From a virus (Duplodnaviria; Heunggongvirae; Uroviricota; Caudoviricetes): a DNA stretch of 14,555 nt. Below, in pieces: positions 9,687 to 10,799 of the stretch. Both the position numbers and the translations under genes were made by a program. Numbering within the stretch: the first letter of the stretch is position 1; the number at the start of each line of letters is the position of its first letter. Where the stretch lies: the IMG/VR virus record IMGVR_UViG_2695420373_000007, one strand, 5' to 3'. Below the pieces are notes generated by a model. The model had not been told where the DNA came from, did no database searches, and saw only the letters and a list, made by a program, of their open reading frames with translations.

Positions 9687-10799
9687 TTACCCTCTGAATC
9701 CCGGCGGAATTTCGGTGTCCGGTTCAGAAATATGATTAACACAACGCTGGTTGTTCGTGCCGCTTACCGGGAGCAACCAGGGGTTTTCAAAATTCCGGTC
9801 CGGTCCAAAAAACGTCGTCGCTCGCTGAACAAATTCCGTTCCAGTTTTCCCGGTAACCGCCAGATATCTTGCGTAACGCCTCACGCCATCCAGCATGGCC
9901 TCTGGTGGCACCCCCTCGCGTAATCTGGCCTTCCAGGCACTGAAAGCGGATTTCTTCGGGTTTGCCCCGGCACGCAACGGGTACTCCCGCCAGACCTGTT
10001 CGAACACATCCGGATAATCCACTCGTCCCACAGACTGCCCGGTGTTTTCCGGGACTACCCGATCGGCTTCCCACTGAATGGCGGAATCGGCTTCAGGCTG
10101 CTGCAGTTGGAGTGATTGCTCCGGCCTTGCGGTCATCACCTGCTGCACAGCGCCCGAATCGGCTTTCAGCGCATACGCTGAATCGGCTTCCGGTGTCGTG
10201 CCTGCTGGCTGACCAGGATTGACGGTCTGAACATCCCCTGCCTGGTTCGTGGCGTTTTTTACGCCATGGACCATAGTGTTTTGATCTTCTTTATCTGTAT
10301 CTTTATCTGTATCTTTATCTGTATCTTTATCTGTATCTTTATCTGTATCTTTATCTGTCGTGACTCGTCGTGACATGTGCGTGACATTTCGTGACGCGCC
10401 GTGACAATCGCCATTTTGTTCCCGCTTTCTTTCCCTCTCTCGCTGCGCCCTCTTGCGCTCTGCAGGAGATTTTGCGGTTTGCGAAATATTGCCGTTGTCC
10501 TCTTTCAGCACCTGGCGTTTTTCCCATCCAGTGATTAAATCACCATCAAGTACCCGCCCCTGCATCGTCTGCAAAATTGAATCAATTACCTCTTCTGTCA
10601 CGTCGAGCGCACTTGCCAAATCTTCTGTCGTGACATCAATGTGACCTCGCGTGACATTTCGTGACGCGCTCACCAGGAGGTGGATATACACTGCCATCAC
10701 TGTTGCAATTGGCTGCCCTGACACCCTGGCAATTGTTCGCCACTTAGGGTCATTTGGCATGTCATGCCATAATCTGAGCCAGGCGTTGGCCATACTCAC
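9687..10799 (-). CDS. Replication initiator / replisome-organiser-like protein (lambda O position) containing internal iterons
   Basis: 370-aa ORF; the likely true start is the ATG at 10791-10793 (SD GAGGTG). First gene after the cro/YdaT-like pair, which is the O position. Coding sequence contains two CGTGAC iteron clusters and a 12-bp tandem array. No helicase-loader (P/DnaC-like) gene follows. Confidence 0.6.
   Translation of the reverse strand: MSMANAWLRLWHDMPNDPKWRTIARVSGQPIATVMAVYIHLLVSASRNVTRGHIDVTTEDLASALDVTEEVIDSILQTMQGRVLDGDLITGWEKRQVLKEDNGNISQTAKSPAERKRAQRERERKREQNGDCHGASRNVTHMSRRVTTDKDTDKDTDKDTDKDTDKDTDKEDQNTMVHGVKNATNQAGDVQTVNPGQPAGTTPEADSAYALKADSGAVQQVMTARPEQSLQLQQPEADSAIQWEADRVVPENTGQSVGRVDYPDVFEQVWREYPLRAGANPKKSAFSAWKARLREGVPPEAMLDGVRRYARYLAVTGKTGTEFVQRATTFFGPDRNFENPWLLPVSGTNNQRCVNHISEPDTEIPPGFRG
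10289..10360. repeat. Tandem array, 6 copies of a 12-bp unit CTTTATCTGTAT (last copy variant)
   Basis: Counted directly at 10289-10360. In the minus-strand reading frame it encodes (DKDT)n. AT-rich. Confidence 0.9.
10358..10405. repeat. Iteron cluster 1: five CGTGAC hexamers at 10-11 bp spacing (candidate origin iterons)
   Basis: (T/G/C)CGTGAC at 10358, 10368, 10379, 10389 and 10399, i.e. helical phasing, next to the AT-rich tandem array. Confidence 0.6.
10596..10670. repeat. Iteron cluster 2: CGTGAC/TGTGAC hexamers at 10-11 bp spacing plus one inverted copy
   Basis: Direct copies at 10630, 10641, 10651 and 10661; inverted GTCACG at 10599-10604. The 21-mer GCGTGACATTTCGTGACGCGC is shared with cluster 1 (10379-10399 and 10650-10670). 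Confidence 0.55.

Follow-up and report, generated by a model that had tools for sequence, protein, structure and literature searches.

The window, the whole 14,555-nucleotide stretch of DNA that was analysed, carries a replication initiator gene located downstream of cI/cro/cII-like genes, within which two clusters of short repeats (iterons) and an AT-rich tandem array are found. The gene and its features, from the start of the coding sequence to its end, are as follows:

Upstream of 10793: ribosome-binding site AAGAGGTG of the initiator gene.
9687 to 10793, minus strand: initiator gene, coding for 368 aa with the ATG at 10793 as its start.
10494 to 10793, minus strand: N-terminal winged-helix domain (aa 1-100), presumed to bind the iterons.
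10629 to 10665, plus strand: iteron cluster A, with CGTGAC at 10629, 10650 and 10660 and TGTGAC at 10640.
10597 to 10602, minus strand: lone inverted hexamer (CGTGAC on this strand), 27 bp from cluster A.
10413 to 10466, minus strand: basic helix SPAERKRAQRERERKREQ (aa 110-127), just upstream of cluster B.
10359 to 10405, plus strand: iteron cluster B, five copies of CGTGAC, coding for disordered linker aa 130-145.
10288 to 10358, plus strand: AT-rich tandem array, TCTTTATCTGTA in 5.9 copies, presumed DNA-unwinding element.
10243 to 10273, no strand: imperfect 13-bp inverted repeat with a 5-nt loop, on the side of the array away from the iterons.
9690 to 9761, minus strand: C-terminal 24 aa, GTNNQRCVNHISEPDTEIPPGFRG, resembling the DnaT C-terminus (matches to PDB 6aep, 2ru8 and 9zbt).

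The enclosing open reading frame spans 9687-10799 on the minus strand, with GTG at 10799 as the start listed by the ORF finder; the homologues start with MANAW, matching the ATG at 10793, so the initiator gene proposed in the earlier note stands but its product comprises 368 aa instead of 370. The protein matches PHROG 3729, 'replication initiation protein', with an E-value of 2e-252, and also PHROGs 1408, 4880 and 5968, replisome organizers that represent the closest profiles besides PHROG 3729. It comprises (i) a replisome-organizer-type N-domain, (ii) a disordered linker, with pLDDT values below 50 for aa 131-163 in the structure model, and (iii) a C-terminal domain. The N-domain is modelled as a winged helix, with the N-domain of DnaD as its best low-rmsd structural match; the latter is known chiefly as an oligomerisation domain, which counts against the origin reading. 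The basic helix at aa 110-127, also helical in the structure model, is kept throughout the initiator family, and its RKRQRER motif precedes iterons in unrelated-looking organizers as well.

The iterons share the core YGTGAC on the plus strand, equivalent to GTCACR on the coding strand. Cluster B displays five exact hexamers starting at 10359, 10369, 10380, 10390 and 10400, with spacings of 10, 11, 10 and 10 bp as previously described, which fall in codon phases 0, 2, 0, 2 and 1. Cluster A, with spacings of 11, 10 and 10 bp, coincides with the coding sequence of the winged-helix H1-H2 loop (aa 43-55, SRNVTRGHIDVT); it had been described as four direct copies and one inverted copy, of which the inverted copy holds, whereas the direct ones comprise three exact hexamers and one with a single mismatch (TGTGAC). 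The inverted hexamer reads GTCACA in relatives L002 and L003. The 14.5-kb window has 13 CGTGAC sites, nine of them within a stretch of 316 bp in which 0.13 would be expected (Poisson P ~2e-14). Likewise, the 21-bp block GCGTGACATTTCGTGACGCGC noticed earlier as common to both clusters occurs in exactly two copies, at 10379-10399 and 10649-10669, with none expected by chance. A search for further phased hexamer arrays in the window and in the complete 46-kb genome of the related phage Tritos disclosed a single 3-copy CAATGC run and no others. Helical phasing between clusters A and B was considered and dropped, the distances between them across homologues (249-270 bp) following no consistent register.

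The AT-rich array directly adjoins cluster B, in agreement with the earlier note, and comprises a 12-bp unit repeated 5.9 times with 100% matches over 71 bp (Tandem Repeats Finder). It shows a GC content of 25%, a value also obtained for 10280-10339, versus about 53% for the initiator gene, together with a marked purine/pyrimidine asymmetry. The coding strand reads GATAAAGATACA and encodes (DKDT)n at aa 145-170, a linker suspected from the outset to vary in length: relatives carry about 2, 3, 4 or 6 copies of the unit. Since the array falls to about two copies in some of them, its length is not critical. The array also marks the mosaic junction of the N- and C-terminal modules. The 13-bp inverted repeat occurs in relatives sharing this C-module and is missing from L002-L004, so it does not belong to the conserved origin; it may serve as an accessory element. 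A promoter/terminator scan of the region yielded counts not above shuffled-sequence expectation.

The repeats are selected as DNA and not as protein, since the hexamers use all three codon phases and impose a strong synonymous-codon bias. Comparison of the H1-H2 loop codons (cluster A) with codons elsewhere across 21 species highlights the preference for (i) GTC among valines, 46 of 52 versus 21% elsewhere; (ii) ACG among threonines, 44 of 53 versus 24%; (iii) TCA among serines, 19 of 24 versus 15%; and (iv) GGT among glycines, 20 of 20 versus 17%. Among relatives from E. coli that are 85-88% identical, the spacers differ but the hexamers are all unchanged, and a 21-bp insertion brings two extra hexamers. 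The H1-H2 loop is the indel-prone part of the N-domain, where iterons were gained by insertion, the loop being 7-22 residues longer where they were added. With an iteron array written into a surface loop of the N-domain, the origin sequence would dictate part of the amino-acid sequence of the initiator. It is unusual for such an array to be placed inside a surface loop of the domain with which the initiator itself would bind DNA.

The layout extends well beyond the window. The analysis covered 61 homologues (Gamma-, Beta- and Alphaproteobacteria, and Acidobacteria). Both clusters occupy the same gene positions in about 45 of them, which come from many bacterial orders, and phased arrays number 55 in 28.7 kb of this gene segment versus 6 in 276 kb of flanks. 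Cluster A is missing in about 14 of the 61 relatives and in the low-GC PF09681 proteins examined, and is thus probably an auxiliary binding array. The hexamer is lineage-specific (GTCACG, GTAACG or CGAACG), yet the same in both clusters of a gene, so that the family provides a clear natural case of dual coding, in which a simultaneous change of motif at both places forces the initiator protein to change with it. GTAACG, GTCACG, GAAACG and CGAACG are mixed within the arrays of some loci, which leaves unsupported the idea that the iteron-encoded loop determines initiator specificity; a shared core ACG(C) read by a conserved N-domain is the simpler reading. Downstream of the last iteron, the lowest-GC 40 bp follow in 41 of 50 loci, and the tract there has a mean GC of 0.36 versus 0.56 and is 72% purine (50 loci).

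The same N-domain and iterons are joined to differing C-modules, with the junction at the array, and downstream of these modules there is either a gene resembling lambda P, one resembling DnaC, or no loader. L002-L004, which carry another C-module, have a PF06992 (Phage_lambda_P) gene downstream, whereas the loader-less version of the module is found in the window, in L006 and in the phage Tritos record. No phage loader gene, P-type included, is present in the window, where the next gene encodes DUF977/LygF.

On sequence grounds, the initiator appears distantly related to PF09681-type replisome organizers, which would be nearer relatives than lambda O. Initiator aa 5-123 align to positions 1-119 of the PF09681 (Phage_rep_org_N) profile with an E-value of 0.016 and 15.6 bits, below the 23.3-bit threshold, and three of 22 relatives match the profile, with a best E-value of 3e-4. 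Moreover, the N-domain aligns colinearly with a PF09681-passing protein (HHalign E 7e-5, probability 63%, 93 columns), the two having the W-x-K-[RH]-Q end motif in common. PF09681-passing proteins (E 2.6e-52 and 1.9e-44) display a GTCACG array directly after the domain, as in the window, and in those from low-GC phages this array is followed by purine-rich AT tracts of the AGAAGATAAAGA type. A low-complexity linker built from short direct repeats lies just past the N-domain, at the same place in the 61 homologues and in the PF09681 proteins. Compared to the latter, the window initiator displays an extra iteron cluster in the H1-H2 loop and a different C-terminal module, ending in the DnaT-like tail.

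A similar organization is disclosed by the gene sequences of r1t, Tuc2009 and SPP1, taken directly from GenBank records. The lactococcal P335-type organizers r1t ORF11 and Tuc2009 Rep2009 preserve the order observed here, comprising an N-terminal DNA-binding domain, repeats, an AT-rich tract and an exchangeable C-terminal domain; four or five short direct repeats, placed at intervals of about 11 bp, precede a purine-rich AT-rich tandem tract. In r1t, four copies of GGAACC are followed by tcAGATAAGAATAGATTAGATAAG, and in the window five copies of GTCACG by acAGATAAAGATACAGATAAAG. Organizers of this type are reported to bind repeats that lie within their own coding sequences and act there as the origin (PMC8965321), and the GenBank record of the Tuc2009 rep gene carries the note 'contains origin of replication'. 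The two phages differ from the window in their iterons (GGAACC and CAACCAA), C-domains (Phg_2220_C and Rep_Org_C) and Gram-positive hosts, and have no second iteron cluster inside the N-domain. [quoted passage not shown] Gene 38 carries AAACGACA/AAAGACAC repeats with ATAAACAACAATGATAAC after them, and their AACG core is similar to the CGAACGCA iterons found in the initiator family of the window. SPP1 has its own loader (G39P) and helicase (G40P) and a second origin, oriR, whereas no second array was found here. The link to the three phages is one of architecture only, since HHalign of the N-domain profile detects no homology to SPP1 G38P, r1t ORF11 or Tuc2009 Rep.

The earlier note had likened the locus to lambda O and ori-lambda. 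Iterons and an AT-rich tract inside an initiator gene are indeed present; lambda O homology and lambda-type iterons are not. A Pfam scan (E<=0.01) of the 370-aa open reading frame gave no match to Phage_rep_O (PF04492), which rules out lambda O homology and makes lambda an analogy only. As in ori-lambda, the candidate origin lies mid-gene, with iterons followed by the AT-rich tract in the direction of rightward transcription, in a gene at the same genome position, after cro/cII. The protein resembles lambda O in its origin-specific N-terminal half and in a C-terminal half matched to the loader, and in lambda, too, the number of iterons varies, adding residues to the protein (PMC7466680). On the other hand, lambda iterons are 19-bp palindromes about two turns apart, compared with 6-bp direct repeats every 10-11 bp here, and the window differs further in its two iteron clusters and lack of a P gene.

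Taken together, DNA-level selection, conserved hexamers, the family-wide layout and the AT-rich tract support the candidate origin placed by the earlier note inside the initiator gene, and from these sequence features we infer an origin function for the repeats. Region 10288-10665 most likely serves a lambdoid prophage, very common in E. coli, as its replication origin, lying within the gene that encodes the prophage initiator. The conserved iteron core of only 6 bp calls for caution here. An internal origin in the initiator gene is a known design from several well-studied phages, of which the locus is most likely a new example; the searchable literature yielded neither experiments on this initiator family nor a description of its origin, and the literature searched on the Eru replication types of Stx phages gave nothing relevant. 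In the proposed mechanism, the winged-helix N-domain would bind the hexamers on one helix face and oligomerise, straining and opening the adjacent AT-rich array; the C-terminal module would then recruit the host DnaB helicase, and the tail resembling DnaT may contact single-stranded DNA or the primosome of the host. As the window has no phage loader gene, the initiator probably uses host DnaC, and the position of the gene downstream of cro and a cII-like gene implies that rightward early transcription would cross the origin, as in lambda.

Several other readings of the repeats deserve consideration. Initiators often repress their own genes, and the hexamers might be initiator sites for autoregulation, copy-number control or superinfection interference ('Per'-like titration), the true origin lying elsewhere. 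The location of cluster A within coding sequence, distant from any AT-rich tract, would fit such a role, as would the phage resistance that cloned organizer origins confer on lactococci by titrating the initiator (PMC8965321). However, neither the window nor the complete phage Tritos genome contains another iteron-like array that could be this origin, 41 of 50 loci pair cluster B with a low-GC purine-rich tract for which a pure operator would have no use, and in those relatives that have been studied by experiment the equivalent repeats do act as the origin, which makes this reading highly unlikely. The same small chance is given to a reading in which some other protein (for example a host factor, the DUF977 protein or a cII/YdaT-like regulator) binds the hexamers and controls transcription across the gene. 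Cluster B is overlapped by one weak antisense match to a promoter-like sequence (10381-10408), but the promoter match count falls below shuffle expectation, and the arrays move with the N-domain through mosaic exchanges while the neighbours differ, with variable immunity genes and a P-like, DnaC-like or DUF977 gene downstream; the same arrays recur where organizer genes of distant phyla stand among quite different neighbours.

The repeats might instead be a by-product of a low-complexity linker, amino-acid repeats made by slippage and devoid of DNA function, as the 12-bp array could suggest, being in frame, variable in copy number and translated as (DKDT)n in a predicted disordered region. For the hexamers this is already contradicted: in-frame amino-acid repeats cannot give spacings of 10-11 bp, and the three codon phases, the extreme synonymous-codon bias, the fixed hexamers among varying spacers and the joint switch of motif in both clusters across lineages all argue against it, so that the by-product reading as a whole is extremely improbable. 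The embedded origin stays the preferred reading of the locus. Its location offers a concrete starting point for work on prophage induction and replication, or for blocking them, and helps to build compatible vectors and to read mosaic prophage annotations.

The C-terminal tail bears on how the helicase might be loaded at the embedded origin. The last 22-24 residues share the pattern SEPDxxIPPGFRG (here SEPDxEIPPGFRG) with the C-terminus of DnaT (primosomal protein I); initiator aa 345-368 align to DnaT residues ~156-179, the stretch also matched by NCBIfam NF002770, and the tail alone retrieves the E. coli DnaT chains 6aep, 2ru8 and 9zbt with E-values of 0.003-0.013 (phmmer). The whole-protein search of the PDB gave one other match, a designed repeat protein, which is probably spurious. 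Neither the DnaT DNA-binding domain PF17948 nor the DnaT N-domain is present in the window initiator, and PF17948 occurs in an alternative C-module of the same family (L002, E 9.6e-18). It is conceivable, if doubtful, that the loader-less initiator loads host DnaB by DnaT mimicry, the origin firing via the replication-restart pathway without a P- or DnaC-type phage loader; the tail, or the true DnaT DNA-binding domain in sister modules, would then engage the unwound array or the host PriA/PriB/DnaC machinery. DnaT itself works in PriA-dependent restart and not at an origin (PMC13377028), and the accessible portions of the DnaT literature state no role for its C-terminal tail; the literature searched held nothing relevant on 'DnaT-like' phage proteins. 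Both the tail and the domain suggest a connection between the firing of phage origins and the restart primosome of the host.

The replication module is widespread, with 1649 of 5426 complete E. coli genomes (~30%) carrying at least 80% of the region, and it is also present in prophages across Proteobacteria.

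The repeats lie inside an initiator gene of the early-right operon of a lambdoid prophage, in an ORF at the position of lambda O. All homologues open with MANAW, which places the start at ATG 10793, preceded by a good ribosome-binding site (AAGAGGTG), and not at the GTG 10799 chosen by the ORF finder; the protein therefore has 368 residues, not the 370 of the earlier note. Downstream follow DUF977/LygF, hok/sok, DUF968, RusA, the Q antiterminator, a DNA methylase and three tRNA genes. The initiator's PHROG matches are to families described as replication initiation protein or replisome organizer; in near-identical phages and prophages it is labelled 'phage replisome organizer', 'DNA replication protein O' or 'primosomal protein I'. 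Of 5426 complete E. coli genomes, 1649 contain at least 80% of region 10150-10810.

Gene and RNA features of the window
9687-10799, minus strand: initiator ORF carrying the repeats
10865-11290, minus strand: cII/YdaT-like gene, upstream of the initiator
11287-11502, minus strand: Cro, P22-type, upstream of the initiator
11552-12268, plus strand: cI repressor, LexA-type, upstream of the initiator
7072-7396, minus strand: hok/sok toxin-antitoxin locus (sok, 114 bits)
1371-1620, minus strand: cluster of tRNA-Arg(tct), tRNA-Arg(tcg) and tRNA-Met
1104-1294, minus strand: STnc100 sRNA (138 bits)
13385-13436, plus strand: DicF sRNA (77 bits)

The repeat region comprises two iteron clusters, A and B, and an AT-rich tandem array with a GC content of 25% versus ~53% in the surrounding gene. 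A stretch of 316 bp holds nine of the 13 CGTGAC sites of the 14.5-kb window, against an expectation of 0.13 (Poisson P ~2e-14). The earlier note had described five hexamers at 10-11 bp spacing in cluster B beside six tandem copies, and a 21-bp block common to both clusters; these elements were recovered, the block occurring exactly twice (10379-10399 and 10649-10669). For cluster A, the inverted copy stands, and the four direct copies resolve into three exact and one degenerate. Neither the window nor the complete genome of the related phage Tritos contains another phased hexamer array, apart from one three-copy CAATGC run.

Repeats in the initiator gene
10288-10358: perfect tandem array of a 12-bp unit, 5.9 copies, adjoining cluster B
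10359, 10369, 10380, 10390 and 10400, plus strand: cluster B, five CGTGAC (spacing 10, 11, 10 and 10 bp)
10597-10602: single inverted CGTGAC
10629, 10650 and 10660, plus strand: cluster A, exact CGTGAC
10640, plus strand: cluster A, TGTGAC (one mismatch)

These repeats are selected as DNA. The hexamers cannot be in-frame amino-acid repeats, because spacings of 10 and 11 bp do not divide by three and the codon phases are mixed (0, 2, 0, 2, 1 in cluster B; 0, 2, 0, 2 in cluster A). In two related E. coli loci, L002 and L003, 85-88% identical here, the five cluster B hexamers are invariant while the spacers differ, and in one case a compensated indel preserves the phasing. In L002/L003 and L008 (E. 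albertii), a 21-bp insertion at ~10645, equal to two helical turns and seven codons (TCHGVSL), adds two hexamers to cluster A in the winged-helix H1-H2 loop; L033 has a 22-residue insertion with further hexamers. The protein loop appears to grow to make room for DNA sites. Among 21 species carrying GTCACG, codon use in the cluster A loop is strongly biased to the codons that spell the hexamer, taking the same genes outside the loop as baseline.

Codon use in the cluster A loop and elsewhere in the same genes
Val GTC: 46 of 52 in the loop, 21% elsewhere
Thr ACG: 44 of 53 in the loop, 24% elsewhere
Ser TCA: 19 of 24 in the loop, 15% elsewhere
Gly GGT: 20 of 20 in the loop, 17% elsewhere
His CAC: 21 of 21 in the loop, 60% elsewhere

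Searching with a profile of the initiator's N-terminal domain yielded 62 loci, each from a different species; they belong to Gamma-, Beta- and Alphaproteobacteria and to Acidobacteria. Among the 61 analysed, ~45 display two clusters of one shared hexamer, spaced 10-11 bp, at the same gene positions (nt ~129-160 and ~350-430). The motif varies by lineage and is shared by both clusters of a locus, including (i) GTCACG in E. coli, Serratia, Bordetella and Pseudomonas, (ii) GTAACG in Pantoea, Enterobacter and Marinobacter, and (iii) CGAACG/GAACGC in many Betaproteobacteria; since some loci carry mixed arrays, the comparison suggests a recognised core (A/C)ACG(C). Counting phased arrays with three or more copies, this gene segment has 55 in 28.7 kb and the flanks have 6 in 276 kb. 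The 40 bp of lowest GC within the first 900 nt of the gene begin at most 60 bp past the last linker iteron in 41 of 50 loci, and this tract (mean GC 0.36 versus 0.56 for the gene; coding strand 72% purine) is often a tandem array of (AGATAA)n or (GATACA)n.

The same layout extends to other organizer genes. Viral contigs were searched for three phased copies of GTCACG, which gave at least 120 loci; in 56 of those listed the array lies within a detectable homologue of the window N-domain, and many of the remaining 64 listed show the identical layout in other organizer genes, among them low-GC phage proteins passing PF09681 (Phage_rep_org_N) at E 2.6e-52 and 1.9e-44. The sequence records of genes reported to contain origins show comparable repeats: (i) r1t ORF11 carries four GGAACC 11 bp apart, then the tract tcAGATAAGAATAGATTAGATAAG..., (ii) Tuc2009 rep, with the record note 'contains origin of replication', carries four CAACCAA, then a purine-rich tandem tract, and (iii) SPP1 gene 38 carries AAACGACA/AAAGACAC repeats, then the tract ATAAACAACAATGATAAC... 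[quoted passage not shown] From these layouts, the window anatomy therefore represents an established class of origin. The initiator was rejected as a lambda O homologue, its ORF having no Phage_rep_O match.

An AlphaFold2 model of residues 1-163, confident for 11-90, predicts a winged helix with helices 29-45, 56-63 and 67-77 and a β-wing at 78-88. In this model, the cluster A codons cover the last part of helix 29-45 and the loop preceding helix 56-63; only here is the domain, otherwise highly conserved, hypervariable and prone to indels. Both cluster B and the (DKDT)n-encoding array lie where disorder is predicted (pLDDT <50 for residues 131-163), preceded by a conserved basic helix, RKRAQRERERKRE. 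The N-domain matches PF09681 over its full length below threshold, and HHalign aligns it colinearly over 93 columns (E 7e-5) with a protein passing PF09681. Some short metagenomic N-domain matches (P0042, P0060, P0061, P0073, P0099, P0101 and P0109) carry HNH endonuclease domains PF01844 and PF14279; either a surprising fusion or an error of gene calling may account for this.

The tandem array (~10280-10360) is a mosaic recombination junction, where one N-domain with its iterons is joined exactly to either of two unrelated C-terminal modules in the related loci L002-L006. The window-type module ends in a DnaT-like tail; downstream of it lies only DUF977 in the window, L006 and Tritos, and an IstB/DnaC-like ATPase gene in L005. 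In L002-L004 the other module includes PF17948, the DNA-binding domain of DnaT (E 1e-17), and a lambda-P-like gene comes next. This exchange mirrors lambda O, with its origin-specific N-terminal and loader-specific C-terminal halves. The last 24 residues of the initiator (GTNNQRCVNHISEPDTEIPPGFRG, residues 345-368; 9690-9761, minus strand) are a close match to the very C-terminal end of E. coli DnaT (PDB 6aep, 2ru8 and 9zbt), and no helicase-loader gene follows the initiator in the window, which together suggest mimicry of the host primosome. The predicted variation of the (DKDT)n linker by slippage is borne out, since the 12-mer copy number differs between relatives (~2, 3, 4 or 6, with 3 the commonest).

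The anatomy of the repeat region, the constraint on its DNA, its conservation and its modular exchange are observed; judged from sequence, the region is probably the replication origin. The winged-helix domain would bind the hexamers on one helix face and oligomerise, the adjoining AT-rich array would then melt, and the C-terminal module would recruit DnaB, here without a phage-encoded loader, while transcription from the early-right promoter would pass through the origin. An auxiliary role is probable for cluster A, because some relatives and the low-GC PF09681 proteins examined do not have it. The hexamers might instead form an initiator-binding array of purely regulatory role, or sites for another protein, or the repeats might be a mere protein linker; each is unlikely, because codon phases, invariant hexamers and codon bias reveal selection on the DNA, the complete related phage has no other array, and the iterons are coupled to an AT-rich tract.

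Origins embedded in initiator genes are textbook knowledge; in the searchable literature, whose coverage is incomplete, no description of the window-type origin was found. The interest of this origin candidate resides in (i) the abundance of the module in E. coli and the breadth of the family, (ii) a second iteron cluster encoded in a loop of the DNA-binding domain, (iii) motif switches in both clusters across lineages, and (iv) a DnaT-like tail and domain in a module able to lack any helicase loader.

Further elements surround the array. Flanking the array is an imperfect 13-bp inverted repeat with a 5-nt loop (10243-10273), which a T-run follows on the plus strand, antisense with respect to the initiator gene. 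The inverted repeat is reminiscent of the palindrome next to lambda's AT-rich region but is missing from relatives with the other C-terminal module. The iterons themselves form a weak sigma-70-like match (10381-10408, plus strand; GTGACA, 16 nt, GACAAT), antisense to the initiator and the sole match in 2.2 kb, fewer than expected from shuffling. Directly after the last iteron, a short box CAGATAAGA or CAGATAAAGA occurs in the window (10346-10358), in the related loci L032, L041, L044 and L057, and in r1t ORF11 (L193); present in organizers of Proteobacteria and of a Lactococcus phage independently of iteron sequence, this box may mark where the unwinding element begins, as a conserved feature, or may be bound by a host factor.
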